Shown one piece after another: positions 383-60,721 of a stretch of DNA of 64,000 bases. The notes under the pieces were generated by a model. The model searched no databases and was not told where the DNA came from. It saw only the letters and a list, made by a program, of their open reading frames with translations. Source of the stretch: Bolinopsis microptera (taxonomy: Eukaryota); contig NC_087080.1 of NCBI RefSeq assembly GCF_026151205.1, positions 4,810,797-4,874,796 of the forward strand, read 5' to 3'. Position 1 is the first letter of the stretch. Each line of letters starts with the position of its first letter. The position numbers were made by a program, and so were the translations under genes.

Positions 383-390
383 AGTTTAAA

Positions 391-31525: not shown

Positions 31526-31526
<1 letters not shown>

Positions 31527-42058: not shown

Positions 42059-42290
42059 GTAAGACAAAGACATATTTTGAAAATTCAGAAAATCAGAAAA
42101 TCTCATGACCCGTAAAATCATGATTTCAATCTGTATTAAAATTTCAAATCGATCTAAGTTTTTTTCATAGATTTAACCGAGAGTCCCCTTGTACCAAATA
42201 TTATTAAGATAGCAGTCCCACAAAACATAGAGGTGAAATTAGCATACAATGTTGGTTAATTAACAATATCTTATAGAAGTAATGTTTCAG

Positions 42291-42368
42291 AGTGGTATAC
42301 GCAGACGGTAGTGCAGTAAGTGAAGCCTGGACACTGGTTAAAAAGGACGACACCGAAGGAAACATTGT
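42291..42368 (+). CDS. Exon 16
   Basis: EVVYADGSAVSEAWTLVKKDDTEGNIV; donor gtaagt. Confidence 0.5.
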
Positions 42369-42647
42369 GTAAGTCTCGCTGGTTTCAGCTATTTCAGCTG
42401 TTTTAGCTGATGCTATCAGTGGGGTTCTAGTCAGTTACCGTTGGGATTTCTGAGAGAGCTTGACATGTGGTGGGATTGAAATTGAACATATTATTGGTCG
42501 TTATTGAGATACAAATAAGCTTCTTCCCAATCATTTGATGATATCTTGTGTTTGTGAACATCGGGAATTTAAACTTCTTATGAATTGCAATCAGTTAAGA
42601 CTGTCAGATTATTTGTATAACAAATAATGACTAATAATGCATCACAG

Positions 42648-42763
42648 GGAGTTTGACTTATCGGCAGCTGATGTAGTTGGTATCCCTAATATCGGGGATT
42701 TCAAAGTGATGGCTAGTGATACTTTTTACAATGCCGAGACGGGAATAACTATTGATGTTCTAG
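42648..42763 (+). CDS. Exon 17
   Basis: VEFDLSAADVVGIPNIGDFKVMASDTFYNAETGITIDVL; donor gtaaaa. Confidence 0.5.
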
Positions 42764-42990
42764 GTAAAATTGAGGTTCTATTTTCAGATAAACTTAAGTC
42801 TCTTATGTCTATCCGATTATTTTACTTGGCTTGACTGTTGAAATTGTGTGTGGATACTGGATAGTGGATACCGAAAGTGCTTTAGATGTAAACTATGTCT
42901 ATCTCGGCAATTTTAACTTTTTAATGTCCTAACGGGTTCATTGCAGCTGGAACATTTTAAAACTACAAATATAATCCTTCATCCTCTCAG

Positions 42991-43135
42991 TACCAATGTC
43001 ATTTATCAAACCTATTGGAGATAACTTGAAGTTGAACAAAGGTCAAGAACTGACTTTAGAAGTACAAGTAATCGCTAAGCCTGTTCCTGTGAGCTTTGCT
43101 TGGACACTTAATGAAACTGAGCTTGTGGATGATGC
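42991..43135 (+). CDS. Exon 18: Ig-like N-half
   Basis: VPMSFIKPIGDNLKLNKGQELTLEVQVIAKPVPVSFAWTLNETELVDDA; donor gtaagt. Confidence 0.55.
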
Positions 43136-43567
43136 GTAAGTTTAATCCGTAATTAATATTAACGTTGACTTGAATTTTATTGAAAACAAAATTGAACATG
43201 TAATATTCATATTACATGCTCTTATAACAGATCCAGGTAAGGGTTAGGGAAAGCGGTAAGGATTCGGTCCACTATTATAATTGCTGGGCCCAATATCTCT
43301 TAACTTCTCATTTAAGTCTCCGTCACGGTTACCTGTTTATTTAAAGCTTGAACTCTGAGCGTTTTGATCACGTGACTAGTTGTGTGCCACTGGACCACCG
43401 TCCACCACACTTCTCAATATTTAGGTTGGGGTTAGGAGAGTCTGAATGAGGCGATTTTTAGCATCGTTTAAATTCTTAATCCCTTTTTTGTATTCAGACC
43501 ATTTACCTCTATACATACGAAAGTTTATTCAAATAACCTCTGAAGAGCTATAATCCATTTATTTCAG

Positions 43568-43731
43568 GGCCACTATATTCATTGAGGAATCTTTCGACGC
43601 CACAACCTACATCACAACGTACACTCTGAGACTTGTAGATCTAAAAGAGGAACAAACAGGAACCATCTCTGTTGGAATAACTCGAGGAGACGACGAAACT
43701 CTGTCCGGGTCTATGGAGCTAGAAGTGCTAG
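43568..43731 (+). CDS. Exon 19: Ig-like C-half
   Basis: AATIFIEESFDATTYITTYTLRLVDLKEEQTGTISVGITRGDDETLSGSMELEVL; donor gtaata. Confidence 0.55.
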
Positions 43732-43869
43732 GTAATATTTCCGGGCACCTCTGGTGTAACCAGTATAAGTTGTGCAGCTTGTGATACGACTAGCTAACTT
43801 CTTAGCCTCCTTGTATTGAGTATATGTACAGGATATAGGGGGAACCAGGATCAAGCTGCATTTTATCAG

Positions 43870-44275
43870 CGGTTCAAGTTATTAACTCTTTAAGTTATTA
43901 AGTTATTCAAGTTATTAACTCTTTAAGTTATTAAGTTATTGAATATTGAAGTTATTAACTCTTACAGTTATTAAGTTATTCAAGTTATTAACTCTTCAAT
44001 TTATTAAGTTATTGAATATTGAACTCATTAACTCTTACAGTTATTAAGTTATTGAATATTGAAGTTATTAACTCTTTAAGTTATTAAGTTATTGAATATT
44101 GAAGTTATTAACTCTTACAGTTATTAAGTTATTGAATATTGAAGTTATTAACTCTTTAAGTTATTGAGTTATTGAATATTTAAGTTATTAACTCTTTAAG
44201 TTATTAAGTTATTGAATATTGAAGTTATTAACTCTTACAGTTATTAAGTTATTGAATAAGTAAGTTACTAACAGT
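43870..44275. repeat. Intronic minisatellite (gttattaactcttta/cagttattaagttattgaatattgaa, ~60-bp unit)
   Basis: Direct reading. Confidence 0.85.
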
Positions 44276-44303
44276 AACTCTAACTTTTATCTCTCTCCTG
44301 CAG

Positions 44304-44436
44304 CGCATCCTTGCCTGTTTTTCCCTTGCAAGAACAACGCAGAATGTCTTGAAGTAAGCAAGACAGAATACGAGTGTGAGTGTACCGACGATTTCTACAA
44401 CGGCACTAACTGTGAAATAAACAATTACTGTGCTCT
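44304..44436 (+). CDS. Exon 20: EGF-like
   Basis: AHPCLFFPCKNNAECLEVSKTEYECECTDDFYNGTNCEINNYCA; donor gtaagt. Confidence 0.65.
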
Positions 44437-44708
44437 GTAAGTGCCCCCTACTTTATTACAACTGTTAAGCTGCGTAAAATGATTCATGTTTTTATTTTTT
44501 GTAGATTGAGTAAGGTTATTATATTGTTATAATATTGTTTCCGCTGTTACGGTTAAGTTGCAGTGTGTTTCCCAATATCCTCGCCGATTCTAGTGATTCG
44601 ACAAAATGTGAAGAATTTTACCATTTGCGTGGAAATAAGATTAATCGTCAAAATTGAACAGTTTCGACCCTTTGTAAAGTTGAATGATTTATATTTCATA
44701 TATTTAAG

Positions 44709-44823
44709 CCAAGACCCGTGTGAAAATGAGTCCACCTGCGAGTCTGCCGCATGGGATGCTGAGGAGCCAATTTACACATGTCTGTGTCCGTTTGACTACG
44801 AAGGACGAAATTGTTCAGACAAG
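44709..44823 (+). CDS. Exon 21: EGF-like
   Basis: LQDPCENESTCESAAWDAEEPIYTCLCPFDYEGRNCSDK. Confidence 0.6.
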
Positions 44824-45051
44824 GTTTTTAAGTTTCTTTAATTCGTGTTTTTTAATTCGTTTTTTGATATAAACTATAATTAGTTACTTTCTTCTAGTTC
44901 TAAACATCCTGTTCAGTGATCACTGAGCAGGTTTTATAATAAGGATTCCAGTCAGCTCATACGACCATGTTTATAATTATATGTTGACTGACGGAATCTT
45001 AGATTAAATTCTGGGGACTGTGATATATTATCCTGATTAATAAAATCTCAG

Positions 45052-45219
45052 ATCAACTTCTGTGACAGAGATAAAGAAGGAAATGTGGAACTCGGAGGGA
45101 TCGCTAGGTGTGACGAGGCCTCTGGTTTCGGTAAATGTCAAGACACGGGTGTTGAACCCGATGGTTTCGACTGTTTTTGTAAGCACAATAAAGGCGGCAT
45201 GTACTGCGATATTGAACAG
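45052..45219 (+). CDS. Exon 22: EGF-like
   Basis: INFCDRDKEGNVELGGIARCDEASGFGKCQDTGVEPDGFDCFCKHNKGGMYCDIEQ; donor gtttgt. Confidence 0.6.
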
Positions 45220-46408
45220 GTTTGTTCGTGCGTTTGTTCATTTGTTAAATTTATAAAGATGTTTATAATTCCATGAATTAATTGTGGTCCATTAAAACAA
45301 AAATCAGCAATGTATCAGTTTTTGGAATTTCAGCCCACGGTTGTGCAAGAAATTTAGATGGTGCCCTTGTCATATCCATTTATTCCTTTGTAAAGTGCAA
45401 TAATAAGAAACGAGCTCCTTGGTCTGCGAAAATCCAGATTTTTCGAAAGAATTTAAAATGATCTAATACACCAAATATCTTAAATCCATTGTCACAACTA
45501 AATTTTTCTGTTACACCTCGAAAAAAGCAAACATCTCTTCGAGTTAGTCTGGCATCACATAAACGACCTAAATTTAATTTAATAGGCGCCTTTAACCAAT
45601 AACTCAAATGGCATTTGCTAGACCACGAAATCTGATGCTCTAATAAAAATCGCATGATTAGATTTACACCCGTAAAGAGCCCCCTGGATTATCGTCACCT
45701 GACAACGACACTATGCTGTCACGTGTTCTCGTGGGTGCTCTGATCACATGACAACATGGGTGCAAGGCAATCTTTTCCTCTGTCTAGGAACACCGAAAAC
45801 TTGTGGGTCCTCTTGATAACAACTCCAGGGTTGATAATGTAGTGAATTTAATTCCATGACGATTGGAACATTATTATAATCAACATGACGTTATCACATG
45901 ATATGTTGTCCCAGAACCTTATCGCTGAGGACCAATCACTGAGGACCGCGTCTTATTAACTTAAAGCGGAATAAAATGTGTGCCCGAGAAATATAATTTG
46001 CCGGGTGGCATCCCAGGTTCTTAACCCTCGACTAATGGAAGTTGGAATGTTTAACCGTGTTTTATCGCAATTCAAGAATTTAGGGACCCCATGAGTCGGT
46101 ATTACAGCATTTCATTGTAAAGAATCACATACAACAATCAACAATGACTGGGCTGGTGCAGAAATTGTCATTTCTGTGAATGAATACATTCATGGGGAGA
46201 TTTCGTAAATTTTATTCAACAAAATCCAGGTATGAACACTATGAAGTCCGTAGAGGGATTACTGAAGCTTCCAAAATGGTCCTTTTTTATTTTACTCACG
46301 ACTTTTAAAACATCATATGTAATGTTTTGAGATGCTAACTTAAGTGTGGTGGTTTTGAAATTTTGAAATTTTGAAATTTTGAAATTAAACCTAATCCTCC
46401 TTTTTCAG

Positions 46409-46522
46409 CTGTGTACTCCCAACTCCTGTGCTAACGATGCAACTTGCACCGTCCAAGGATACGGTGAGGACCGTGTCCGTGTCTGTAACTGTAACGACGG
46501 GTGGGAGGGTCATCTCTGTGAC
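46409..46522 (+). CDS. Exon 23: EGF-like
   Basis: LCTPNSCANDATCTVQGYGEDRVRVCNCNDGWEGHLCD; donor gtaagt. Confidence 0.65.
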
Positions 46523-46775
46523 GTAAGTGGGACAACTTTTATTTCTGGGACAAGATTTATTTCTCTGTTGTATTGACTGTGGTACGTCGCTATGTTTAGA
46601 AGTCAGGGGTGAAGTTACTCTTTGTTAAAAACAATTCTTTTGAAAACAGATATTATAACATTATTTAGGTATAAAAAATGATATCATTATGTTAAAAATG
46701 TTGTTAAAAACAAATGTTTTGCAAGTAGTTGTTAAAACATTATTTAGCTATTAAATATGTAAAATATAACTTCAG

Positions 46776-46884
46776 GAGAAAACAACAGGGTACTGCTGGA
46801 CAGATTGTAATGACCGTGCTTACTGTGAGGAAGAGGGGGTGTGTCTGTGTGACTACCCTTACTATGGGGACACGTGCGAACTAC
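46776..46884 (+). CDS. Exon 24: EGF-like
   Basis: EKTTGYCWTDCNDRAYCEEEGVCLCDYPYYGDTCEL; donor gtacgt. Confidence 0.55.
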
Positions 46885-47589
46885 GTACGTTAACTCTATT
46901 TCTAGAACATATACCAGCACAAGCTGCTGGTCCAGCAGCTTTATTGTTCTTTTGGAGTTACATTCTTTGGTGAACATAACCATCATGATTCATTCGTATC
47001 ATATGTTTTACAAAATTCTCGTCCCCCGAGCACCATGATGACATCATATCTCCACTCTCCAGATATAAGCGACGTTGCTGTGAACATGAGAATTGCACCC
47101 CGTGCATATCTGATGGCTGAAACCTATCCCCTAATCGCGGAGGAGCGACTACAGAAACACGTTTTACCTCTTAAGATAGAGCCGTCACCAACCGTGTCGT
47201 GCCGTATCGCTAGGATGAGCGCTGATAAGGATGCCACTGGTGATCATCTTGATTTCGGTATCTCGGTTACAGAGTCCGCTATTTCTGAGACAGAGAGTGT
47301 GACTGTTGTTGCGTTTGAAGTTACTGGTCTGATTGGAGAAGTGGCCGTGTCAGAGACTGTTGACAAGGTTATATCATTAAATTATACCTGTGTTTTAGTT
47401 ACATTTTGATTATGATATTTAAAGTATGATTGATTTTAAAAACTTTTATATTTTGAAACCAGCCTTGAAATGCAATTTCAGGTAACCTTTGAAAGGATTT
47501 ATTACTGGACCAGACCTAATGTGTATTTTTATAATGCTACGCTGATTATCTATTTATTCAATCTATTACCCAACAGGTAATGGTGGCAG

Positions 47590-47732
47590 AAATTGTGGCA
47601 ATATCCCTGATGGCTGTCGCGGATAAATACGTAGTGTTCTCAGTTGAACATGCTGGAGATGGAGGAATTGCAGCTAAAGAGATGGAACTAGCCCTGCCAG
47701 AATTAGCATTCCTGAAACTTGGTGATTTCGAG
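47590..47732 (+). CDS. Exon 25: hydrophobic segment
   Basis: QIVAISLMAVADKYVVFSVEHAGDGGIAAKEMELALPELAFLKLGDFE; acceptor gtggcag, donor gtatat. Confidence 0.45.
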
Positions 47733-48034
47733 GTATATTAGATTACATGGGTTGATGTATCAATGCTCCATTAACACATATGCCCTTCCGTTCCTATTAT
47801 AATCACGGAACACAATTGGTCAGTTTAAACTTTAAATTCACAGATGTGTTCGTAATAATTTATGTTAAACAATAACATAATGCCAGTTTCACATCATGGC
47901 AAAGGTTTCTAAAAGATTGGCAGTCTAATATATCTTTACAGATTAAACATAATATTCACCATACTGATTCCTGTAGGTTCTTTAGAGTTATATGATAAGA
48001 AATAATACACTTTTACAATAACAATGTCCGGTAG

Positions 48035-48173
48035 GAGGGAGTTGGGTGTGGTGTGGTGCTGATCGGACATGTTGAGGCAGGTGATTACGCTGTTAACCCA
48101 GCTGCCGGTTACTCTGAGGGACGATCTGTTGAGCAGCTTGATGCCTGTTATCACAATCCCTGTATGAATGGAG
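48035..48173 (+). CDS. Exon 26: LamG-like end and EGF start
   Basis: EGVGCGVVLIGHVEAGDYAVNPAAGYSEGRSVEQLDACYHNPCMNG; donor gtgggt. Confidence 0.5.
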
Positions 48174-48407
48174 GTGGGTTTATTGTGACGTGCTGATTGT
48201 TGTGTTTTATAATGTCACTGTCCCTGATTGGTTAGTTAGAATTTAGCATTTTGGGCAATGTTAACTGCTTGATCTATTGAAGGCGATAATGAGACTTCTA
48301 TTTTGAGTATTTCAAACAATACGTGGTCTGACGACAAAAACCCCAAACCATCTGGTCCTTGAGAAATTCCAATAGCATGTTTGTTAAAATGGTTAAAAAC
48401 GTCTCAG

Positions 48408-48493
48408 GAGAATGTGTTGGTGATGAAAGTACTGGGGCCCAGTCTTGTGACTGTTCTGGCACTGGCTTCACTGGAGCTCTCTGCGAGATTCCA
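48408..48493 (+). CDS. Exon 27: EGF-like
   Basis: GECVGDESTGAQSCDCSGTGFTGALCEIP; donor gtaagt. Confidence 0.6.
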
Positions 48494-48771
48494 GTAAGTT
48501 TCCTAATACCGAGGAATTCTTTTAGAGGTTTTGTTTCATCTATGTAATAAGGCTGAGCACAGTATGGAAGGTCATACAATTCTCGATAAATATTTTCATC
48601 CTAGTTTAAACGGAGTTTAAATCAAAGTTTTGGTAAATTAATTTATATTATGACACCAGCGCAGCCGTCAAAAGACAATCCTTAGCGAGTTTTTTGAGAA
48701 TCTAACATATAACCAATTTTAATTAACTCATTATCCAATTATTTAATTATCTAATTATCTTTACTAATCAG

Positions 48772-48853
48772 GATGACGAATCATGCGATAAGGGCTGTCT
48801 GAACGGTGGCGTCTGTCAATCTGATTTCTGTGTCTGTGCTTTGTCATTCCACG
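48772..48853 (+). CDS. Exon 28: EGF-like
   Basis: DDESCDKGCLNGGVCQSDFCVCALSFH; donor gtacgg. Confidence 0.6.
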
Positions 48854-49156
48854 GTACGGTTGGCTCGCATTCTTACTAAAGTTCAAGCAGTTATATAAAT
48901 TGTCATTTCTATTAGTTAAGATGACAGTTGTGTTTTTAATAAACGTTTGAAGTTAATATAGAGTACTATCAATTGTCATTTAATAGAATTAAGGATTACG
49001 GTTGTGTGTTGTGACTCCGTTAATCACTTCGCTGCTAGGCTAAACTTCAGGTCTTTATCTTATGGTGCCCTTCTCTGTTCACAAGCCAAAACTAGAAGGC
49101 AGGGCATCAAAATGAGCAGATCACCCACAATCCCTGACATTACACTGTAACTTCAG

Positions 49157-49256
49157 GAGTGTTATGTGAAGCTAGTCACGAGGTTACTGGAACCATGAAA
49201 CTGTCCGGTGGTGCTAGCGAGGTTTCTTTCAGTCACTCTAATATCACCGCTGTCGA
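49157..49256 (+). CDS. Exon 29
   Basis: GVLCEASHEVTGTMKLSGGASEVSFSHSNITAV; donor gtaagt. Confidence 0.55.
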
Positions 49257-49402
49257 GTAAGTTTTGGTTTAAAACAGCCTTGATAGTTTTTGATGGAATC
49301 AGTTTTTACGTTATCAAACGATTCATCACTTTTGGGCATCCGATTATTTGTGTGGTTCCCATGAAAATATATCGTTTGATTAATATAAAATTAAACCACC
49401 AG

Positions 49403-49487
49403 AATCCAAGCGACGGGGCTGGCTGACGCTACAGTTGCTAGTGATGTTTACCTGATAACTATCGGAGATCAGGACAACTGTGTCAAG
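49403..49487 (+). CDS. Exon 30
   Basis: EIQATGLADATVASDVYLITIGDQDNCVK; donor gtaaaa. Confidence 0.5.
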
Positions 49488-49907
49488 GTAAAATATCTGT
49501 GCCAAGAGGGAGTATTTGGTAACCGCCACCCTTTATTTGGACGTTTATCTACAATGTGGTCAATGTGCCTGCTAAATCGGGGGCTAAACCATATTTTTAA
49601 CGCTTTTATCTGTTCTTTTAAACTGAGTTCTATTGTAGCATCCTGTATCAACTTTCCAATATTTGAGAAGGGTGAAGAAAAATCAAATGCTCTGAACCTC
49701 TCAATGGAAAACACTCAACCAAAATAAATTATCCCTCCGACCTTATCTCACCTTTAATTTAACTGAGTGGATTTTGGGTCTGTGCTTACTGCTTAGTCGC
49801 TGAGTTTAAGTTTTACAGTCGGGTGAGATTCAATTAGGTTAAGTGAGGTTTAATGAGGTTAAATGAGGTTAAATATAGTGTGTTCTCACCTCAACTGACC
49901 CCACTAG

Positions 49908-50045
49908 ATCCTGGTGTCAGACACAACAGAACTGTATATGATAGTGGAGCGTGGAAAGGAGAGCGGTGCCTACGAGGGACTGGGTTCTCTTGCTGATTAC
50001 CTTGTTGAGGGTACCCTTCAAATGTCCATTTCTCTTGGAGAGGAT
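49908..50045 (+). CDS. Exon 31: LamG-like
   Basis: ILVSDTTELYMIVERGKESGAYEGLGSLADYLVEGTLQMSISLGED; donor gtgagt. Confidence 0.55.
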
Positions 50046-50221
50046 GTGAGTTTTTATGAGCTGTTTTTCTGTTTCATTTCTATTTTCGGAGAGAGATAAC
50101 TTTTCTTACACTATAATTTTTTTAAACGTGCTAACACGTTAATGGTCACAGTTCTTAATTTTCAAGACGTCTTACTTTTAAATAATGCTTCGTGAAAACT
50201 AAAACCGTTCTCAAATTCCAG

Positions 50222-50294
50222 ATTCAGATAACCAATGCCGCTAGAGATCCTGTAGTTTACACTGCAGATGAGCTACCTTGTGCTGACGGTCTAG
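50222..50294 (+). CDS. Exon 32
   Basis: IQITNAARDPVVYTADELPCADGL; donor gttcgt. Confidence 0.5.
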
Positions 50295-50456
50295 GTTCGT
50301 TCTCGATTGGTTACTTAGTTACTGAATACTGACTGTGTTACCAAGTTACCTCGGTCACTAGGCAACACAGTTACCAACCTAATTACTACCTGTCCCTAAT
50401 TGTATCACTGATTATATTATTAAATTACTTCCAACCACTCTGACCCCCTTCATTAG

Positions 50457-50579
50457 GAACTACCGACGGTCTGGCAATTCACGGTCTGGAAGGTATCACC
50501 TCTGACGTCACTGCCACTATCAACGGGGAGGCTGCCACGGCAACCGGTGGCAAGGGGGTCGTCAACTCGGCTGTTTCGA
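50457..50579 (+). CDS. Exon 33
   Basis: GTTDGLAIHGLEGITSDVTATINGEAATATGGKGVVNSAVS; donor gtaagg. Confidence 0.5.
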
Positions 50580-51282
50580 GTAAGGATAGCATCATGCAAT
50601 TAGATCGTATCATGTATTGTGTATAATAATGTATAATAATGTATACTTTGCAAGTAATATGGAAGCGTATTAAGAGTATGTTAATGATTTGATAAGCAGC
50701 TAATCAGTAGGGTGTCTGAACTATCGTGTAAATTGGAGAGAGAGAGAGAGCAAAGGGCCAGCCTTCTTTTGTTACATACCACAGTAAAAATGTTTTACTG
50801 TGTGGTTACATACATACAAGGTATTATACGGCCGAGCATTATGGTTCTTGTTAGAGATGTTAGAAACATGGGAACGATTTATCCTTTTAAGGTCTTACAA
50901 TTGCCACCTTAAGAATAACAAATAACTCTATTTTGTGAATCACCATAATGTAAATTTTATCTTCTCCCCTTAAAATCACTCTGCTAATCCCTCAAAACAT
51001 ATAATAAGGTAAGTTATAGAACTCCTGACCAAACGAGTGCCGAAGGCACGAGTTTTGTCAGGAGTTCTATAAATTGCTTATGGTACGGCACAAGACTACA
51101 GTCTTGGGAACATTTTCCGACCAAAATTTTGAAATTTGGTGCATTTTAACAGTGTCAAATTGGCAAAAACTGTATCTACTTCCGACACAAAGTGTTCATT
51201 GTCCAATGAGCATCCTGCCATGCTGCTACCATCGTGTTACTCTCGTGGTTGCCACATGACAGCTTACCTAACTGCTATTGGA

Positions 51283-52200
51283 CAGCGCACTTTTGTCACG
51301 TGAGTTACATTTATTGAGTACAGTACGGAATAAATGTAAGTGGTAAGTATCGGTGTCAAAGAAGACGCTTGCATTCTAAAAGGAGTAAGATATTATGTTA
51401 CAAAGAATGAAATAGTTTGGCATGCAAATTGATATTTTAATACTTCACAGTGAAATGAACTTCCGCTCTCGCGGGAAAAGACAGCTCTGTTCCTACATTT
51501 TTATCATTGTCTTCAATTTTATGTGGCACCTTTCCGATAGACATATTGTTGCTGTCAAATCTCATACTTATTTCGACGTGTCCTATCTGGTTAGGCAAAG
51601 TAATCAGAGTGTTTGTATCTATTGAAACCGTTTCCGTCCATCTTGATTGTACTTGTTCTACTTCAAAGTCGTCAAAGTCTGTAACTAGTTGGGAGCCTTC
51701 AGATGTTTTTAGCCAAATAAGTGCTTCGGCGAGTTCTTTATTCAATTTAGATTTCTTTGCTTCTTTTGGGGACACTTTGCCACCATATTGTTTATCATTG
51801 AAGGAACACCACAGTCCAGCGGGGCATACCTATGCCCCAAACGGGCGTGCTCCTCTCTCCATGTGTTGTACAAATTGACCGCGAATTGAGTCGATTTTCG
51901 TGTGTTTTCTGGTATTCGGCCTTTCCTGAGAGCTTCAAGTTCATCTTTTTCTATCAAAATAATACGAGACGTCATTATGTAAACAAAACAGTGCGATTTA
52001 ATTTCAAATTTTTGGTCCATTTCCTGTTACAATTTATGAAAGTAGTTCCTTCCGATCTACTCCACTAATTTAAAACGTTTGAGATGATAATTCATTTTTC
52101 AAGTGGCCGCACTTTTGTCACGTGAGTTACATTTATTGAGTACAGTACGGAATAAATGTAAGTGGTGAGTATCGATGTCAAAGAAGGTGCTTGCGTTTGA
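51283..52200 (-). other. Intronic ~0.9-kb segment bounded by ~93-bp direct repeats and carrying a short ORF with a tyrosine-recombinase core-binding-like motif
   Basis: Direct repeats 51287-51380 and 52108-52200 (gcacttttgtcacgtgagttacatttattgagtacagtacggaataaatgtaagtgg...). ORFs 51742-52020(-) and 51437-51775(-) include RIPENTRKSTQFAVNLYNTW. Confidence 0.4.
51742..52020 (-). CDS. ORF with SAM-like/core-binding-like motif (P.NT.K.T.FA..L...W); possible Crypton/DIRS-type tyrosine recombinase N-terminal fragment or a domesticated derivative
   Basis: MDQKFEIKSHCFVYIMTSRIILIEKDELEALRKGRIPENTRKSTQFAVNLYNTWREEHARLG... It is followed out of frame by ORF 51437-51775. Confidence 0.3.
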   Translation of the reverse strand: MDQKFEIKSHCFVYIMTSRIILIEKDELEALRKGRIPENTRKSTQFAVNLYNTWREEHARLGHRYAPLDCGVPSMINNMVAKCPQKKQRNLN

Positions 52201-52567
52201 AATGATATTTCATATTTCAAGCAAATTGTGAGCTGTGAATCTAATTTTGCTTAAGCATGAAATCCAGCCCTTCTCGCTGGCTAATATTGGTCACGTTATC
52301 TATCAGCTGACTATACCTCGTGACTGCGTCACTCGGTGACCACGTGCCCGACTGGCTGGTGCCGTACCATAAGGTTAAAAAGCTCATTTGAAGTATTGGT
52401 TCTTAAATCCAGGATCTTAGGTAAATCGGTATTATCCACTGCTTTAATTTACCATTAATTCAGGAGTCAACTCAACCTCTGTAACCTACATTTGATTTTT
52501 TTAAAGACGTTTCTATAACTTATTTTAGCAGTAGACTAAAATATAATTGTCTGATAAACACATTTCA

Positions 52568-52718
52568 GACTTGTGTGACGGAGCCTGTGGTGCGGGAACG
52601 TGTGAGCAGGCGAACAACCAGATAAAATGTAGTGGATGTGTAGAGGGTACCAACCTGGTCACATGCTCTGATGTAGTTTGTGATGTGGAGTTGTGCGAGG
52701 GAGAATGCACTGATATTG
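52568..52718 (+). CDS. Exon 34: EGF-like
   Basis: NLCDGACGAGTCEQANNQIKCSGCVEGTNLVTCSDVVCDVELCEGECTDI; donor gtgagc. Confidence 0.55.
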
Positions 52719-53552
52719 GGTGAGCTTTCTGGTTTTGGATTTTGAAACTGCTTTTGATTAACGAGTTACGAGACTAGCGTTTTGTGATACAAGCAACAAA
52801 TATTGTAGACAGTTTTTGGGTTTTCCAAATAGTTTCTGATTATTCTGATTTGCGACAAATGATATTGCACTGTTAGGATAAACGACGTTTCAAAGTAACA
52901 ACTTCTTATTCATGCTGACAAAATTGGTAAATATGTGAGAAAACTGTCTCATAAAATTTATTAATCAAAAATGGCTAAACGACAACAAATTGTTCAAATA
53001 CTCGACTAAAATTAGGATCAAAATCTATATATATACACCACTACTCGATCTGCTATTCAATAAACTTAAAACATCCACTAAACAGCAAGTACGTGATTGT
53101 GATCGTGTGATGGAATGACATGTACAGTGATAACAGATGATAAGATGTAAGTGATAACAGATGATAAGGTAAAAGATACAATACATGTGAGATGGTGTAT
53201 ACACAATGTGAGTGAAATTATAGTGAGTGGTTACTGATTGTGAGCGAGATGTGAAAAAACATTAAAAATTACTACTGCTAGAAAACTGAAACTGTATGCA
53301 ATAAAAAGGGAATGAAACTAAAATATCTAAAATTCTTCAGTACTAGCTATGATAAAACGTTTAATAGTATCCAGTTCTTCTCTCTTGTTAATATAATAAA
53401 TATTGTGTTCACTCTCAAACACATAAATTTTAATGTGCATGATTTTAAATCCGTATAGTATTCTTGTGACTTAAATTGGCTGTCAAGCATCTGCACAACA
53501 TGAAACTATTACCTAGAGAATACCAAGTTCTGATTTAATTACAAAAGTCACG

Positions 53553-53625
53553 CGACCCCGGAGGGATTCGAACCCCCAATCTTCTGATTCGAAGTCAGAC
53601 GCCTTAGCCATTAGGCCACGAGGCC
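53553..53625 (-). tRNA. tRNA-Arg (anticodon TCG)
   Basis: The reverse complement GGCCTCGTGGCCTAATGGCTAAGGCGTCTGACTTCGAATCAGAAGATTGGGGGTTCGAATCCCTCCGGGGTCG folds as a cloverleaf. The anticodon loop is CTTCGAA and the T-loop is TTCGAAT. A TTTT terminator follows on the minus strand. It lies in an intron of the ECM gene, 36 bp upstream of the exon 35 acceptor. Confidence 0.85.
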
Positions 53626-53660
53626 GCTGGAAGATTTGCTAAAATTGTTATCCAACCCAG

Positions 53661-53707
53661 GGAGTGCGTATGCGAATTGGGACAGGAAGGAGTGAATTGT
53701 GAAACAG
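53661..53707 (+). CDS. Exon 35: EGF end
   Basis: GECVCELGQEGVNCET; donor gttaaa. Confidence 0.5.
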
Positions 53708-53858
53708 GTTAAATTAACTTTTTTACAACTACTGAAGAAGTTTGTCGATTTGTTCAAAATATAATATGAATTCCATATCCTTTCATCCGAAAACTCAAAA
53801 TTGCTAACCTGTATGCTTAATCTATTTATTTTTTTATCGCTAACTTATTTGTTCTCAG

Positions 53859-53941
53859 CCGTTACACTTGGACCTCTATCTCTTCCTGTAACTACTTCTT
53901 CATACTACTCGTATGCTGAATATGAAACCGAAGCTTTCGAA
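53859..53941 (+). CDS. Exon 36: LamG start
   Basis: AVTLGPLSLPVTTSSYYSYAEYETEAFE; donor gtgagt. Confidence 0.5.
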
Positions 53942-54290
53942 GTGAGTAAAATCAAATTAAATCATTAGTACAAGCCATTAGAATTTAGAATTCGTTCTGA
54001 AACTTTTACAACGAACCAGCGGTAGAATTTTCATCGACAATTCACATTTTCACAATGAACCATCGCTTTGGTCGCTGAATATTTTGAGGAAATTAAACGA
54101 TTTTCCTGTGGGATTGTTTGTAAAGATAAGCCGCCATTATTTTTTGTAAGACGCACTTTAGATTTCAATAAGAAAAAAAGTTTGAAGAAGGCATATATTA
54201 CGCCGCGCAATAATGCTTTGCACATGTTTGACATGTGGTTATACATGCCTTCGTATTACCCGATAGTTGATAATTGATCTCTACTTTCAG

Positions 54291-54396
54291 GGCGATGCTG
54301 CTCAACTAGAGTTCTTTGCTCATTTGGATGGATCTGAGCAAATGGGACTGTTAGCAATGGCCGGAAACGAACGCCAATACATTGCTGTAAAACTTG
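54291..54396 (+). CDS. Exon 37: LamG
   Basis: GDAAQLEFFAHLDGSEQMGLLAMAGNERQYIAVKL; donor gtgagt. Confidence 0.55.
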
Positions 54397-54545
54397 GTGA
54401 GTGCCGATTATCACAGTGAGGCCCTGATCAAAACATGTAATCAATTTCTCAACCGCAGACGGGCCTGAAAGGAAGGAAAGAAAAATTTTTTTCCTCGGCT
54501 CTTTTCAACTTCTCCTCAATAATTTAACCCTCCCACTTTTCTCAG

Positions 54546-54700
54546 CTAAAGACGTGATGACGGTTGTGGCGCACTGTTCTGACCTTGTGCACGTGGAAGC
54601 AAGTGTTAGCGGAGTTGGGTATGGTGAGTGGTTGGAGATTTCTGTGACGTGGGCTGATAACTTCCTCACCCTCGCTGTTAATGGGGATAACGACGTACAG
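54546..54700 (+). CDS. Exon 38: LamG
   Basis: AKDVMTVVAHCSDLVHVEASVSGVGYGEWLEISVTWADNFLTLAVNGDNDVQ; donor gttagc. Confidence 0.55.
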
Positions 54701-54859
54701 GTTAGCTGTGATTATCTCGTTTGGGTTGTTGTGTTCTTGCTATGTTTTGGTTATTTAATGGAATTATCAATAGTCCAACGGTTTCAACATTAGAATGACA
54801 TATTTTAACATGTTCTAGTTTTTCATAACATCCTCTTTAACAAACAAAATATTTCTCAG

Positions 54860-54968
54860 GAAGAAGCTGGATTATGTATATTTGACATGGGTACAACTAT
54901 ATATCTTGGAGGTATGCCAGATGGCAGCGTGCCAAGTGTAAAAGCCACATTTGCTCCAGCAACCAATA
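54860..54968 (+). CDS. Exon 39: LamG
   Basis: EEAGLCIFDMGTTIYLGGMPDGSVPSVKATFAPATN; donor gtaagt. Confidence 0.55.
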
Positions 54969-55046
54969 GTAAGTAATTAGAGACATTTATCTTTTGAGTA
55001 AACATTAACCAGTAAATAAAGCTGGTTCCCAATCAATCAATCATAG

Positions 55047-55322
55047 TGTTTACACCCTTGGAAGCTCTATCTGCTGAATTAGAACAAGATCTTCTGAAAA
55101 TTTTATCTTCAGGGAAAGAAGATTTTGGTGTAAAATTAATCCAGATTTTGAAGGCTAATAATGTTACAACCACTGTTACTTTAACGCCGTCTTCACGCCA
55201 ATATCTTAACACAGTTAAACCCCCAGTGATGCCCCTTAACTCTAGACTTGCGGGTGGACAGAGTCTTGCAGTCTCTGAGATCCACATTTGTGACACACAA
55301 TTCGACCCATGCAGTGTCTTAG
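55047..55322 (+). CDS. Exon 40: LamG C-terminal part
   Basis: MFTPLEALSAELEQDLLKILSSGKEDFGVKLIQILKANNVTTTVTLTPSSRQYLNTVKPPVMPLNSRLAGGQSLAVSEIHICDTQFDPCSVL; donor gttagt. Confidence 0.5.
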
Positions 55323-55569
55323 GTTAGTTATACTCAAAGTATTGCTTTTCTCCTCGATACTGTTTTATAATTGCAACCATTTATTCGATTCTGTGAGTAT
55401 GGTTACTATAACTTGGTCAACTGCTTTCTTTATAATTAACTATTACTAATTAACTATAATTAACAACTGCTTTCTTTATAATCAATTGTTAATATCTTAA
55501 AGCTCCAGATTGTTAAGCAGACAAGAAATAGATTTTTAAGTTTATGCAGTCTCAATTATTGTCAACCAG

Positions 55570-55670
55570 GAACGGACACGTGTGAAAAGGATGATGAAGG
55601 ATACAGCTGTATGTGCAAGGACGGATTCAAAGGAGTACATTGCGAAGCGCCCAAAACGCCCTGTGACACA
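55570..55670 (+). CDS. Exon 41: EGF-like
   Basis: GTDTCEKDDEGYSCMCKDGFKGVHCEAPKTPCDT; donor gttagt. Confidence 0.6.
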
Positions 55671-55774
55671 GTTAGTACAAACTCTGCTGTAATTTCTCAT
55701 CTGACAGAGAATTCTCTCACCAACCAATCCATAAACCCCTTTCGATTTGGCCTCACTAAATCTGTCTCCCCCAG

Positions 55775-55944
55775 ACAGTGTGCCAAGATAACGAGGTATG
55801 TGTTGAAGCTGACGGTTCCTGTCTTTGTGAGTTCCCCTCCACTCGATCAGCAGATGAAGTGTGTCAAGGTGAACTGGGTAGTTCCACTGGTTTTATTATG
55901 GAGGGAGCTATGAGTTATGGTCACATCGACACTGATAAGGCTGA
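55775..55944 (+). CDS. Exon 42: EGF-like
   Basis: TVCQDNEVCVEADGSCLCEFPSTRSADEVCQGELGSSTGFIMEGAMSYGHIDTDKA; donor gtaagt. Confidence 0.55.
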
Positions 55945-56224
55945 GTAAGTGACGGGTGGTTTTTTGATGATTTATCTTGCTCTGCTGGAATCTTTGTCCG
56001 TATTTCGTCAATTTCTTTCGTCTTTTAAATATTTTCCCATTGTATAAAAAAAAAATCGTGTCTCGTGATGTAACACCGATTTTGTTCGATAAAATTGGTC
56101 ACACAATGAAAATTAAGCAAATCGTTAAACACGTAAACCGTCAAAACATATTATCATTATATTTACCACAAACAAAATTCCAATGATAAACATAAAATGC
56201 CTCCTCACAAACTCGTTCTCACAG

Positions 56225-56374
56225 AGTCGCCAACAACTTTGACCTGGTGTTCCGGTTCTACCTATCAGACTCAGCAACAGTAAACGCCACCTACGACCTT
56301 GCTACTCTATTATACCCGGGCGAAGACGGAACTGAGTCGCAAATTGGTTTACATCTTGTTGTTGGGGAGGAAGA
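56225..56374 (+). CDS. Exon 43
   Basis: EVANNFDLVFRFYLSDSATVNATYDLATLLYPGEDGTESQIGLHLVVGEE; donor gtaaga. Confidence 0.5.
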
Positions 56375-56536
56375 GTAAGAAACAATATTTTTACTTACCT
56401 CATTTGATGCGTTAGGTTTATTAATACTTCTTTGTTTTGATATTTTAAATTAGACTGCGACTAATCGTTTTGTTTCATCAGAGAAGTACGTAATTATTTA
56501 GATATTGCCGATATTAACCACACATTCTTTATAAAG

Positions 56537-56614
56537 GCAAGTAAATGAAGCCAATGAACCTATAACCGTGACGATCTATGTGTTGGTTATACCGTTCGAC
56601 GAGAGTGTGTCCCT
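56537..56614 (+). CDS. Exon 44
   Basis: EQVNEANEPITVTIYVLVIPFDESVS; donor gtaagt. Confidence 0.5.
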
Positions 56615-56674
56615 GTAAGTACATACCTTTCTAAAAGTATATTGTGCTATATATTTTAATTTGTGATCTTTCAG

Positions 56675-57565
56675 AGTTATTTTGCCAGTTGACGATGAGG
56701 ATGCTGCTGAGGAAACAGATGGAGATGCTGAAGAGGAAACAGATGGGGATGCTGAAGAGGAAACAGATGGGGATGCCGAAGAGGTAACAGATGGTGATGC
56801 CGAAGAGGAAACAGATGGGGATGCCGAAGAGGAAACAGATGGGGATGCTGAAGAGGAAACAGATGGGGATGCTGAAGAGGAGAAAGATGAGGATGCTGAA
56901 GAGGAAACAGATGGGGATGCTGAAGAGGAAACAGATGGGGATGCTGAAGAGGAAACAGATGGTGATGCCGAAGATGAAACAGATGGTGATGCCGAAAAGG
57001 AAACAGATGATGATGCTGCAGAGAAAACAGATGTGGATGCTGAAGAGGATCCAGCTGTGGAGAATACAGATGGAGAAGACAACGGCATAACAAAAAGAGA
57101 TGCCGAAGAGCCCGCTGGTCCGCCAGCTGGGAATGTCGAAGAGGAAACAAATGGCGATGCCGAATTGGAAACAGATGATAATGCCGAAGTGGAAACAAAT
57201 GAAGATGCCGAAGAGGTAATAGATGGGGATGCCGAAGAGGAAACAGGCGGGAATACCGAAGAAGAAACAGATGAGGATGGCGAAGAGGAAACAAATGGAG
57301 ATGCCGAAGAGGAAACAGATAGAGATGCCGAAGAGGAAACTGAGGGGGATGCCGAAGAGGAAACAGGCGGGGATACCGAAGAAGAAACAGATGAGGATGC
57401 TGAAGAGGAAACAGATGGAGATGCCGAAGAGGAAACAGATGGAGATTCCGAAGAGGAAACTGAGGGGGATACCGAAGAAGAAACAGATGAGGATGCCGAA
57501 GAGGAAACAGTCACCCGTAAAACATTCCAGATTTCTTCTCAATTTCTTGAAGAGGTGGTTTTACT
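56675..57565 (+). CDS. Exon 45: long acidic tandem-repeat exon (TDGDAEEE x about 35; 24-nt period)
   Basis: ORF 56682-57569 reads VILPVDDEDAAEETDGDAEEETDGDAEEE... It stays in phase with the flanking exons, with acceptor ctttcag and donor gtaagt. The long S-rich minus-strand ORFs here are antisense artefacts of the repeat. Confidence 0.6.
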
Positions 57566-57855
57566 GTAAGTTAGCACAATATCATCGAGCCATGAAGGTC
57601 GTTTCTTCAAACTTCAAACTTTAGCATCGGGATCATCTTGGTTTTGCTTCCATGTAAATTGTAACGAATGCATGATACTTGGAAACCTTTTTTGCATTAT
57701 TTGTCATGAAAATTTCCTTTATTCGTATTTAATTTCTAAAGATTTTTAGCACTAGTTTTAGCATGTGATAGATACCTTCAGTATTAATTTCAATAGAAAG
57801 AACAAGCCCTGTTCTAGTTCCAAGAGGGCGAATAGTTTGCCTTTGAATGGTATTA

Positions 57856-58020
57856 GGGGTCGTTCACATATTACGTAATCAGCTGAGGGGGGGGGGGGGT
57901 TTCCGAATGATTACGCTAGTGTAATTTTGACACAATAGCTATGTGTAAAACTGATTACGGAGGGGGGGGGGGGTGGTAAAAATGTTCCAAAAAATGATTA
58001 CGTAATATGTGAACGACCCC
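57856..58020. mobile_element. Tourist-like hairpin MITE (26-bp perfect TIRs, TTA target duplication, internal poly-G tracts)
   Basis: GGGGTCGTTCACATATTACGTAATCA ... TGATTACGTAATATGTGAACGACCCC, flanked by tta|...|tta. Confidence 0.65.
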
Positions 58021-58427
58021 TTAACAGACGGAACATTGTTTTTGTGCGCCAAACACTGCACGTGACATATGAGAAATGGGGGAGTCGCATTGTGTAACCA
58101 TTTGCGACAAGCTTTATCAGGGTGCCTGTTTCTTGTTCGAAAATTGAAGATTTTTTAATGACTGACGATCTTTCCTTCCTAGCATTTATTCATGCGTTAT
58201 ATTCTTCAGCAGCATTTACATAGGAAATCCGATAGCATATTTTAAAGTTTTTCCTCCTTTCAGCACATTTTAAGATTACATATCTCTCAAAATATTTACG
58301 TCTTTTGTCGAATTATCATTCCAGGAATGTTTTTCTTCATTTTAAAGCAAAGCACAGTTTACACTGCTAATTAGTGAAACTATTTGAGTATACTAGTTTT
58401 CCAGACTAACACTTTTGTCATTTGCAG

Positions 58428-58463
58428 GGAGCCCAATCAGTGGCACGTCATCAGAATTCAAAC
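58428..58463 (+). CDS. Exon 46
   Basis: LEPNQWHVIRIQ; acceptor tttgcag, donor gtaggt. Confidence 0.45.
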
Positions 58464-58785
58464 GTAGGTTCTTTTTGATAGAATTCCACACATATTTGTA
58501 CTCAAATTCCCAAACTCAACAGTATGATTGCACTATTTCAACATTAAAACCGAGTAATTTCGTAAGAAAACACAGATCAGCTTCACATTCAATTGTAATA
58601 AGATAATAAAACCTCACAAGCCACCTGCTGGTCTGACGCTTCACAACTACCAGTAAATCACGAGTCATCACGTTTTTCACTCCCCAGCAATAGCGACACA
58701 AGCCACCCCACCAGCAGGGGATCATTGATCACTGTTCACTGTTTTAAATGTTGAATAACAAGGGAATAACGGGAGGTACGCCCAG

Positions 58786-58874
58786 GTCTGGATTGGGAAC
58801 AACTCTTGAGGTTAACGATAAGGTTTACTCAACAACGGAGCTCGGTATCCCTCTTGTCAATGCTATTCATCTAG
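58786..58874 (+). CDS. Exon 47: LamG
   Basis: TSGLGTTLEVNDKVYSTTELGIPLVNAIHL; donor gtaacg. Confidence 0.45.
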
Positions 58875-59109
58875 GTAACGTTCATTAGTTGCAGTTGAAA
58901 TAGTTACAGAATTTTCGGGAATTCATACTAAAGATCATTCTTGTTCCTAAAGTTCTTGATCGTTCTTGTTCCTAAAATTGCAGCATTCCAAAAATTTGGT
59001 AAACCTTACAAGCATTCTTAAATCGATCGCATCTAGTATTCTCCTTCATAAAATAGAAAAATTATAATTTCAAATTTGGACACGAGTCTTGGAACACCCT
59101 GTACTTTAG

Positions 59110-59196
59110 GTGTGGCTGGTAACCAAGCTTACATGAGCTGTATCGGAGACATCACACTCAACGGACAACCAATCACGGAGTTAGACGACGGTCTAG
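59110..59196 (+). CDS. Exon 48: LamG C-terminal motif
   Basis: GVAGNQAYMSCIGDITLNGQPITELDDGL; donor gtttgt. Confidence 0.55.
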
Positions 59197-59349
59197 GTTT
59201 GTTAGAATGACAGTTGATGTTTGGTGATTTTAGCTATAATATAAAACTAGCAGCACCTTGGTGTAACTCAAACTGATGACCGTAAAGACTACCGAAAATA
59301 AAATTTATGTTTTAAGGACTCTGAAAAATTTACAACTTCCCCATCTCAG

Positions 59350-59435
59350 GTGTCAAATCCTGTTCTGACGAAGTCAACACTGAGTACGAGAACAGGCTGG
59401 GAGTTGAGGTTTGGGCTAAGCTTGGCCTCTTGTAA
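59350..59435 (+). CDS. Exon 49: putative terminal exon with stop TAA at 59433-59435. A gtaaga donor overlapping the stop means continuation cannot be excluded.
   Basis: GVKSCSDEVNTEYENRLGVEVWAKLGLL*. Confidence 0.4.
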
Positions 59436-60721
59436 GACGATCTACCTACTTGTTAAAACTGGGACTGCTCCAACTGTAAATTAGTCCCTCTTCAATTTAT
59501 CTTGCATTGGGAACCACTAGCTTTACAATGCCTAAGGGAATTATTGTCCGTGTAACAGCGAAATGAGATAAATTTTATGACTGTTAAGGTGACCCTTTGT
59601 GCGGTTGTACGCATTTTTAGATTAATTGACTTTAATAATTCGCCAGAATGAGAAAGGGAATATTAATTCATTTTAAAAATACTTGACCTTTGATTCTCTT
59701 TTGCATGGATGATTAATTTATTAACTTGCAGGCACCACAATTGATTTTGACTATTATATATATATTTTTATTCTATGATTAATCCAATTAATTCTATTTC
59801 TAGCATACTTTTTCTACGCTTTTATTTTTAGTAACCGGTTTAGCTTAAATTTTTCTGACGAATATAATGTAAATATTTTAAATCTATTTTCAAGCTTTTT
59901 GATTAACTTACATTTTCTGGCTGTTCGACCTTCGGCTACTCTGCTGGAACTATTCACTATTACACATTGTCGTTCTGCCAATTAAAGATCGTTTCTGAAC
60001 GTGTAAAGTGTTTGCGACATACTTAAATAGTAAATACATATTATTATTTTATGCTATTTGCTCTGAGAATTCAAGCCCTTTATGAACGAACTGTTTCAGT
60101 TTTTATGATTTTATGCTTTTTAGTTTTTGTACAATTTTTAAGTAAAACTTTAAAGTAGACTCTAAGATTAATTTTTTCAATATGCATATTTGTTGCTGTT
60201 ACCATACCAGTGGTACCGGTAGTTTATTTACTACGGATATTCTGGCACTAGTTTTTAAACTCAGAACTGATTCGCCGTTTTATTGTTTATGAATATTATT
60301 TCAAAGCAATGTAACAAAAGTCAAAAGGTCAGCATGTTTGTATTACAGGGATGAATTTTAATGCAATATCGATTCAACGTATTGGAATTGAAAGATGACT
60401 GTTCTAGTTCATAGTTCTCATACAATTCAACAGTTCGATTATATCGTAAATCCATGTAACTGTAAGAAGTATTATCTTAAACAAATTATTTCGGGATCAC
60501 CCGTGAGTACATCGCCGCATTAAAACGTGCCCTTTGACCTGGATTCTGAAATATATGTTATATAGTCAGTATAGTGATGTTAATGCTATTGTTTAACTTT
60601 TGTTTTGACACGGAAGAATACATGTTTCATGCTTGTGTATGTTTAATTAGTAATTGCAGCGAGCGACTGATCAATAATTAACGGATGATACTCGTAAAAT
60701 ATCTGTTCCATATATATATAC

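Follow-up and report, generated by a model that had tools for sequence, protein, structure and literature searches.

The new analysis centers on an acidic-repeat exon, referred to as exon H, in a 64,000-nucleotide (nt) stretch of the Bolinopsis microptera genome (contig NC_087080.1, positions 4,810,797 to 4,874,796 of the forward strand; hereafter the window). The window carries eukaryotic traits, namely a guanine-cytosine (GC) content of ~37%, open reading frames (ORFs) for reverse transcriptases of the long interspersed nuclear element (LINE) type and spliced genes. Exon H lies toward the 3' end of one such gene, which encodes a multidomain extracellular protein, and the data favor, as probable, its use as an alternative coding exon within a LamG-like domain.

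The structure of the host gene is defined by L010, an intron-less metatranscriptome contig of 6,973 nt that was found in a scan of the Joint Genome Institute (JGI) metagenome/metatranscriptome collection. L010 aligns with the window in 50 blocks of 94-100% identity, all but one of at least 95.5%, and is an mRNA of the window's own species. It confirms 49 introns of 104 to 1989 nt and contains an ORF of 1911 amino acids (aa), which starts with a signal peptide (MRAPKLVFLLLAIFYSS) and ends in VKSCSDEVNTEYENRLGVEVWAKLGLL before the stop codon. In this product, Pfam recognizes LDLa (E=1e-6), Ig_3 (E=9e-10), I-set (E=5e-6), several EGF modules and one clear Laminin_G_2 domain (E 1.4e-7 to 5e-7), and none of the overlapping pieces into which all 1911 aa were divided matched a SEA, laminin-IV, laminin-EGF, Kazal/follistatin or NtA domain. 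LamG was missed by Pfam on concatenates of unspliced ORFs and was revealed by the spliced models alone. Specifically, the LamG domain at 53859-55322 reaches 30.6-32.5 bits with Laminin_G_2, above the cutoff of 22.9, and is followed by two EGF-like modules that directly precede the last domain of the protein (Table 1). The C-terminus is also present in sequences from relatives (L009 and P0002/L001). A candidate gene end at 59110-59210, with its TGA, was rejected, as P0002/L001 and L010 show the donor at 59196 and the exon at 59350.

Table 1 The host gene and the exons around the acidic repeat, in window coordinates
Feature	Position	Strand	Description
Host gene	36784..60614	+	50 mRNA-confirmed exons; LDLa, Ig, EGF, LamG in that order
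Exons of preceding LamG domain	53859-53942, 54293-54396, 54546-54700, 54860-54968, 55227-55322	+	Confirmed by L010
Exon with EGF-like module and first strand of last LamG-like domain	55775..55944	+	GELGSSTGFIMEGAMSYGHIDTDKA; L010 100%; homologue L009 9663-9844
Exon G	56225..56374	+	VANNFDLVFRFYLSD...IGLHLVVGEE; 2 bases left for next codon; in L010
Short alternative exon, 78 nt	56537..56614	+	QVNEANEPITVTIYVLVIPFDESVS; L010 positions 5405-5483, 100% identical
Spacer between alternative exons	56615..56674	+	60 nt, gtaagt...tttcag; retention gives an immediate in-frame stop (CTg taa)
Acidic-repeat exon H	56675..57565	+	891 nt, 297 codons; absent from L010 mRNA
Exon H head, non-repeat	56675..56714	+	VILPVDDEDAAEE; one strand and loop start
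Repeat block A	56715..57050	+	14 x 24-nt TDGDAEEE units; mean pairwise identity 89%
Degenerate middle	57051..57146	+	96 nt = 4 x 24, register intact; PAVENTDGEDNGITKRDAEEPAGPPAGNVEEE
Repeat block B	57147..57506	+	15 units, mean identity 81%; 120-nt higher-order period
Exon H tail, non-repeat	57507..57565	+	TVTRKTFQISSQFLEEVVL; hairpin strand 2
Peptide from exon H non-repeat head/tail			TFQISSQFLEEVVLLEPNQWHVIR
36-nt exon EPNQWHVIRIQ	58428..58463	+	'W-H' strand typical of LamG; L010 100%
Exon SGLGTTLEVNDKVYSTTELGIPLVNAIHL	58786..58874	+	Acceptor with weak polypyrimidine tract; L010 100%
Exon VAGNQAYMSCIGDITLNGQPITELDDGL	59110..59196	+	L010; donor used ahead of in-frame TGA at 59208
Last exon	59350..60614	+	(G)VKSCSDEVNTEYENRLGVEVWAKLGLL, TAA at 59433-59435, 3' untranslated region; L010

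Exon H is bounded by tttcag/AG at 56675 and ACT/gtaagt after 57565. In a crude matrix its acceptor ranks 4 when set against the 46 acceptors that the mRNA confirms in this gene, and its donor ranks 19 of 47 confirmed donors. The exon fits the phase of 56225-56374 on its 5' side and of 58428-58463 on its 3' side, and in the frame offset by 1 from 56675 a run of 300 codons is open (56667-57566), in which translation proceeds from VILPVDDEDAAEE through (TDGDAEEE)n to ETVTRKTFQISSQFLEEVVL. The preliminary description of this DNA had proposed an 891-nt exon in phase with its neighbors, whose product is a low-complexity, polyanionic stretch within the LamG region of the protein, and both points hold: the + frame is open between canonical splice sites, and Asp plus Glu (D+E) make up 53% of the product and Lys plus Arg (K+R) 3%, for a net charge of -148. 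Of the near-perfect 24-nt repeat in about 35 copies that was also described, the period is real, whereas the near-perfection and the copy number are not borne out. Specifically, Tandem Repeats Finder (TRF) reports one array at 56694-57510 (period 24, 34.0 copies, 79% matches, 1% indels), and recognizable TDGDAEEE units number 29, split over two blocks of 89% and 81% identity. Within block B, the higher-order copies 57243-57362 and 57363-57482 are 93% identical, and the non-repeat part of the exon comprises 64 codons with zero stops. Exon H alone matches the Pfam family Fibrinogen_BP (PF08017) with 51.4 bits against a cutoff of 50, smeared over the whole low-complexity array, and within its domain the score of 48.9 bits lies under that cutoff; homology to this bacterial repeat family was rejected as a compositional or repeat artefact, because the host is a eukaryotic spliced gene. 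Two Val-variant units, GAG/GTAACA (56781-56789) and GAG/GTAATA (57213-57221), form internal donor-like sites that score 6.7, the same as the real donor, and their use would lose the frame with the next exon.

The mRNA takes another path through this part of the gene. In L010, exon 56225-56374 is joined to the short exon 56537-56614 and the latter to 58428-58463, with exon H absent; such skipping is the outcome that the preliminary description itself had named as contradicting its reading, and it speaks against the constitutive use assumed there. The short exon and exon H both begin with one codon-completing base and end with two spare bases, and both can be joined in frame to identical flanking exons. 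The spacer between them measures 60 nt in the window, 64 nt in L009 and 58 nt in a third taxon (L003), compared with a minimum of 104 nt among confirmed introns. Since 60 nt is far below 104 nt and the spacing is conserved, the two exons probably cannot be joined to each other, and the spacer is presumably unspliceable in the window's species. Two junctions are consistent with mutual exclusion, namely that of the short exon with 58428 in L010 and that of exon G with an H-type head in P0003, a sequence from another species. The latter reads ...TIDVAEEE/VPIDDND, a G-to-H-type junction without a short exon between, and because P0003 runs continuously over two intron positions (the F-G-H junctions), it is transcript-like. 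From this geometry, one mRNA and one transcript-like fragment, the short exon and exon H are most likely mutually exclusive. A dynamic-programming (DP) gene finder chained the 78-nt exon together with exon H; its donor at 57554 and its exon at 57920 were rejected as wrong or spurious, and omission of the 78-nt exon, which improves the LamG fit, was rejected because L010 uses it.

The same arrangement recurs in relatives, whose DNA, like L010, is found in marine metatranscriptomes and metagenomes. Their loci were obtained by an exhaustive HMMER search with the repeat-trimmed domain, in which the matches were only exon-sized ORF fragments of public assemblies; two word-indexed protein searches with the flanks and the C-terminal region returned no matches. 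L009 covers 20 kb of a 956-kb contig in a different assembly; from window position 46778 on, its exons are collinear with those of the window, with 45-75% aa identity and matching intron positions. After its exon-G counterpart follow a 78-nt short exon (10329-10406), the 64-nt spacer and an 896-nt ORF (10471-11366), whose head reads VVVPDEEDEG and whose end is NEKTVTRKTFAISLEFLEEPVL, followed by a gtgagt donor. The acidic block in L009 is a Glu/Gly-rich repeat of ~262 aa with periods of 12, 42, 132 and 267 nt, a D+E fraction of 0.52 and a net charge of ~-136. In L003, an exon G' precedes a 69-nt short exon (708-776), the 58-nt spacer and then VVIDEDSTDGEDGG...(DDTT)n, the acidic ORF reading VVIDEDSTDGEDGGDEGSDGADDTTDDTTDD... 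to the contig end. L004, a genomic sequence of ~85% DNA identity to the window, starts inside an acidic array of 10-aa units, (TDADEDAEEE)n, and continues with AATRKTFRISSQFLEEVVL and the conserved downstream exons.

Comparison of these loci separates what is kept from what is replaced. The tail of exon H is identical to L009 (11302-11364) at 16 of 21 residues (76%; tblastn E=3e-6) and to L004 at 15 of 16, and the heads elsewhere are alike (VVVPDEEDEG in L009, VVIDEDSTDG in L003 and VPIDDND in P0003). Next to exon H, exon G is 65% identical to P0001/L003 and 53% to P0004/L009, and all 11 residues of EPNQWHVIRIQ are identical in L009, L004 and L006. The ends of exon H align between the window and L009 with z=11, and the short exon with z=2.7. 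Head, tail, phase and position are thus kept across taxa, and the repeat units (TDGDAEEE, TDADEDAEEE, E/G-rich and DDTT) are mutually unrelated. D+E amounts to 50-56% in the three longer arrays and to 71% in the 38-residue L004 fragment, and the two complete cases match in length (891 versus 896 nt) and net charge (-148 versus ~-136). This pattern of conservation is therefore unlike that of an intronic minisatellite. In agreement with the preliminary description, orthologues retain an acidic block and have not lost it between the flanking exons. Its proposal of a recent expansion is supported in so far as the repeat turns over fast, as seen in L004 with its 10-aa units at ~85% DNA identity; it does not account for the acidic block itself, because a distant orthologue has a block of like length and charge built from an unrelated unit.

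Other repeat expansions were encountered in the same gene family. Transcripts L001/L002, from a distant homologue, start inside an in-frame (TMVNG/TMVDG)n repeat of 15-nt units (positions 1-100), which immediately precedes the strand that corresponds to the alternative hairpin. Their use as proof that an H-type exon is expressed was dropped, as the strand segment aligns about equally to the short exon and to the H tail. In several lineages, the alternative hairpin seems to be a hot spot at which repeats expand, and some of these repeats are non-acidic. A second and quite different expansion occupies L009 2199-4338, where an 87-nt unit is repeated 24.6 times with 98% identity and in frame (29 aa per unit), yielding a 564-aa ORF; each unit combines an acceptor-like 'ttcag' with the 5' portion of the exon that corresponds to window exon 49157-49256 (VLCEA(S/T)HEVTGTM...).

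Exon H supplies ...VILPV, a loop and RKTFQISSQFLEEVVL to the last domain, between IGLHLVVGEE of exon G and LEPNQWHVIRIQ of the next exon. The spliced sequence of this domain contains the LamG hallmark strands EPNQWHVIRIQ, AIHLGVAG, SCIGDITLNG and GVKSCSD. Its alignment to Laminin_G_2, which stays below threshold, is unbroken over profile positions 10-98 only with the H ends, starts at profile position 47 with the short exon and vanishes with neither, and three of six orthologous pieces give a weak match of their own (best E 0.047). A profile of the six pieces searched against the PDB returned neurexin-1alpha as its top three matches, with E values of 0.002-0.004 to which several LNS domains contribute in sum; one neurexin LNS domain taken singly had E 0.62 and laminin alpha1 LG4-5 had E 1.3. 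The neurexin-1alpha alignment covers the EPNQWHVIRIQ strand and the ...CI..(I/V)NG...GVK-SC end. An hhalign comparison of the last domain with the neighboring true LamG domain was not significant. With its head and tail placed as strands within one LamG-like domain, exon H appears not to be the linker between LamG modules that the preliminary description had proposed.

The available data is most compatible with a model, which we regard as reasonably probable, in which exon H is a conserved alternative coding exon and probably the exclusive partner of the 78-nt exon, the pair switching a LamG-like hairpin between a compact and a polyanionic form. With exon H, the hairpin would consist of the strand VILPV, a loop and the strand RKTFQISS...VVL of the C-terminal LamG-like domain, the loop being enlarged by an acidic tandem repeat to ~265 presumably disordered residues (D+E 53-56%, net charge ~-148), and the 78-nt exon would provide the compact version of the same segment. 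The short isoform, present in the mRNA, has 1911 aa and the long one is predicted to have ~2182 aa; exon H would enter the mRNA in certain cells or stages of the window's species. The swapped hairpin, with its 'l-x-l-x-y-d-l-G-s-G' turn, is one that we take to lie at the LNS/LG edge with the Ca2+ site and the splice-insert loops, and the enlarged loop would jut from this ligand-binding/Ca-site edge of the LamG fold. The switch would add a long polyanionic, cation-binding and strongly hydrated loop to the terminal LamG domain, which, by analogy with the LG splice inserts of neurexin and agrin, may alter or mask the ligand binding of the domain through charge and bulk. Judging from composition, a low-affinity, high-capacity role in binding Ca2+ or other cations, or a role similar to that of glycosaminoglycans, is possible as a secondary function. 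That a polyanion loop of constant length and charge serves as an encoded counterpart of a glycosaminoglycan chain, or as a cation store, and gates LamG binding is a tentative and rather doubtful extension of the model.

Several observations weigh against this model. The JGI scan, which included the H-tail pattern KTFQISSQ, yielded no H-containing contig, and no transcript of the window's species with exon H was found, the sole full-length mRNA skipping it. At the exon-H site, however, contigs L001, L003 and L004 begin or stop inside repeats, and these three independent breaks indicate that short-read assembly fails there. The last domain remains below the Laminin_G_2 cutoff of 22.9 both with the H ends (13.3 bits, E 0.12) and with the short exon (13.7 bits, E 0.089). 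Its AlphaFold2 single-sequence models are all-beta with low confidence (predicted local distance difference test, pLDDT, 40 and 43), and the best Foldseek match of the second model (pLDDT 43) in the PDB, a beta-neurexin LNS domain, has a non-significant E of 0.28. The short exon shows no significant similarity to the H head plus tail in global alignment (z=0.6 versus shuffles). In the L009 assembly, a one-base shift puts the head of the exon in a different frame from its tail, with the frame switch near a GGGG run at ~11250-11260; this break could be an assembly error or real decay. Purines make up 76-97% of three of the four arrays, and replication slippage or splicing-enhancer content, not protein charge, could lie behind the composition. 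Within the window's array, distinct variant types number 8/9/11 by codon position and synonymous types 8 of 28, compared with 14 of 72 possible, and this variation is no proof that the acidic frame is under selection.

Part of this evidence agrees with a different reading, in which the array is an intronic GA-rich minisatellite or a decayed pseudo-exon that never enters mature mRNA, and the ORF is a by-product of a stop-free 24-nt unit. Exon H is skipped in L010, its frame is inconsistent in L009, a clear surplus of synonymous variant types is missing and, at 891 nt, it is three times as long as the longest confirmed internal exon of the gene (305 nt). All three minus-strand frames are likewise open over the array, leaving six frames largely open, and ORF length by itself means little as coding evidence here. 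Such a reading is nevertheless quite improbable, given that the non-repeat tail has 76% protein identity to L009 as compared with 45-75% for confirmed exons, that splice sites, phase, head motif, acidity and length (891 versus 896 nt) are kept despite unrelated units, and that the 64 non-repeat codons are stop-free. The openness of the opposite strand also raises the possibility that the array belongs to an antisense gene as a Ser-rich (SSSASPSV)n exon, for which a minus-strand ORF of 320 aa at 56579-57538 could be cited. Differences from the consensus unit number 13/18/34 by codon position (cells, not independent events), and the variant table implies that third codon positions in the acidic frame coincide with those in the antisense frame; the third-position excess therefore cannot pick the strand. 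Instead, splice sites and flanks decide in favor of the + strand. Upstream of the array no minus frame has a Met and the sole acceptors score ~-5, every flanking conserved exon is on the + strand, and the conserved head and tail make sense on that strand only, which makes an antisense exon the most far-fetched of the explanations.

If exon H is coding, it might still be used differently. Use as a cassette, with exon H spliced in alongside the 78-nt exon or with both exons open to skipping, would agree with the fact that both are multiples of 3 nt of equal phase, which keeps the frame in every combination, with the lack of detectable homology between them and with the chaining of both by the DP gene finder. 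This is unlikely: the 60-nt spacer is far under the 104-nt minimum of the 49 confirmed introns and its length is conserved at 58-64 nt, both exons would provide one and the same structural segment, and P0003 joins G straight to an H-type head, as L010 joins the short exon straight to 58428. The constitutive acidic linker between LamG modules favored by the preliminary description, for which an in-phase exon with good splice sites can be adduced, is very improbable in view of a full-length mRNA without exon H and of an exon head and tail that are part of a LamG-like domain.

The proposed pair of exclusive exons can be set beside known cases. In alpha-tropomyosin, mutual exclusion of exons 2 and 3 is sterically enforced by an intron that is too short or a branch point that is too near. 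In OGDH, exons 4a and 4b are mutually exclusive and the length of the intervening intron is constrained (PMC7969005). The window pair shares with both the adjacent same-phase exons and the short, conserved intervening intron; whereas the classic exclusive pairs are homologous and of similar length, the window pair measures 78 versus 891 nt without similarity, and its exclusion is one that we infer. As for the acidic segment, collagens V and XI carry an alternatively spliced, highly acidic and disordered 'variable region' beside their TSPN (LamG-like) domain. This region follows the domain and has no tandem repeat, in contrast to the acidic repeat of the window gene, which is situated within a loop. 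The closest functional parallels come from LG domains themselves. The agrin LG insert is located beside the Ca2+ site and alters how agrin binds alpha-dystroglycan and heparin (PMC6450144), and neurexin inserts gate the binding of dystroglycan, neuroligin and neurexophilin (PMC4183798, PMC2150755). Neurexin SS2-SS4 and the agrin inserts A/y (KSRK, LG2) and B/z (8/11/19 aa) are, like the exon H loop, spliced surface loops of an LG domain in an EGF/LG array. These inserts comprise 4-30 non-repetitive residues and arise from cassette or alternative-donor events, whereas in the window gene a whole hairpin exon is apparently swapped and brings in a polyacidic repeat of ~265 residues; the likeness implies no claim of orthology or of a shared ligand.

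The composition of exon H also recalls biomineralization proteins, and EGF plus LamG proteins occur in coral skeleton proteomes (PMC4890752). Aspein, Asprich, coral SAARPs and acidic skeletal organic matrix proteins (SOMPs) have in common with exon H a polyanionic, repetitive stretch in a secreted protein, a likeness of composition only, with no sequence relationship. The Asp/Glu-rich biomineral proteins consist mostly of their acidic part, whereas exon H would be an optional loop in a folded domain. As such, a mineral-matrix or calcium-binding role of exon H is speculation based on a match in composition (D+E 53%). With regard to the whole protein, perlecan domain V and the agrin C-terminus offer a similar layout of LDLa, Ig, alternating EGF/LG and a terminal LG domain. 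In the Pfam searches, the SEA, laminin IV (LamB) and laminin-EGF domains that would be expected in perlecan were not found, nor were the Kazal, SEA and NtA domains of agrin. On present evidence, the window protein is perlecan/agrin-like in layout only and a member of neither family.

It is known that loop splicing in LG/LNS domains tunes neurexin and agrin binding with inserts of few residues. What would be new, if true, is the swap of a whole hairpin exon together with a very large disordered polyanion insert in an LG domain, a mode of LamG regulation that is not described for neurexin, agrin, laminin or perlecan. The comparison across taxa furthermore would provide a natural case of selection on composition over sequence. 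In practical terms, repeat exons of this type will be systematically overlooked or wrongly included where short-read assemblies and gene predictors are used.

Further features were noted along the host gene and its counterpart in L009. Two conserved inter-EGF domains (47063-48173 and 49157-50579) are ~60% identical in L009 and have no Pfam match; they stand where an EGF/LG array would have LG domains. A tRNA-Arg(TCG) gene on the - strand (53552-53625; Rfam 69 bits; ARAGORN) lies in the host-gene intron between 52569-52719 and 53661-53707 and is the only Rfam match, and the intron between 43568-43731 and 44304-44436 holds an AT-rich minisatellite of 40 nt x 9.7 (43890-44272). In L009, an intron-less gene for a 362-aa rhodopsin-type G-protein-coupled receptor (7tm_1; 12660-13748, - strand) is nested in the intron between the counterparts of 58786-58874 and 59110-59196; the matching intron of the window has 235 nt, and the receptor gene is absent from it.

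The surroundings of the gene are rich in repeats. LINE-type retroelement ORFs (reverse-transcriptase/endonuclease-like) flank it at 283-3078, 4169-5890, 11968-13526 and 63010-63999. A large inverted structure spans ~8000-21300 with its core at 14652-18213, bracketed by (ACATGGTTATG)x17 at 14652-14836 and its reverse complement (TAACCATGTCA)x29 at 17897-18213, and contains alternating AATGAACGGA / TTCATTTCCG arrays, one per ~400 bp. ORF translations of ~8000-11800 recur on the opposite strand at ~19300-21300, and in appearance the structure resembles either a palindromic duplication or an element of the foldback type. Upstream of the host gene there is also a satellite of 313 nt x 3.3 (29167-30205) and, at 31811-35048 (with 31489-31659 and 35062-35211), a CT-rich repeat of ~3.2 kb of the TCC/CCTCCTCAGTCCT type, with a GC fraction of 0.60 and strong strand skew. 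Flanking the latter are a poly-G run of 37 nt and arrays of the short units GGACATAGGC / GTCCGCCAATGTCCGTCCGA, and the repeat ends ~1.7 kb 5' of the first exon of the host gene.

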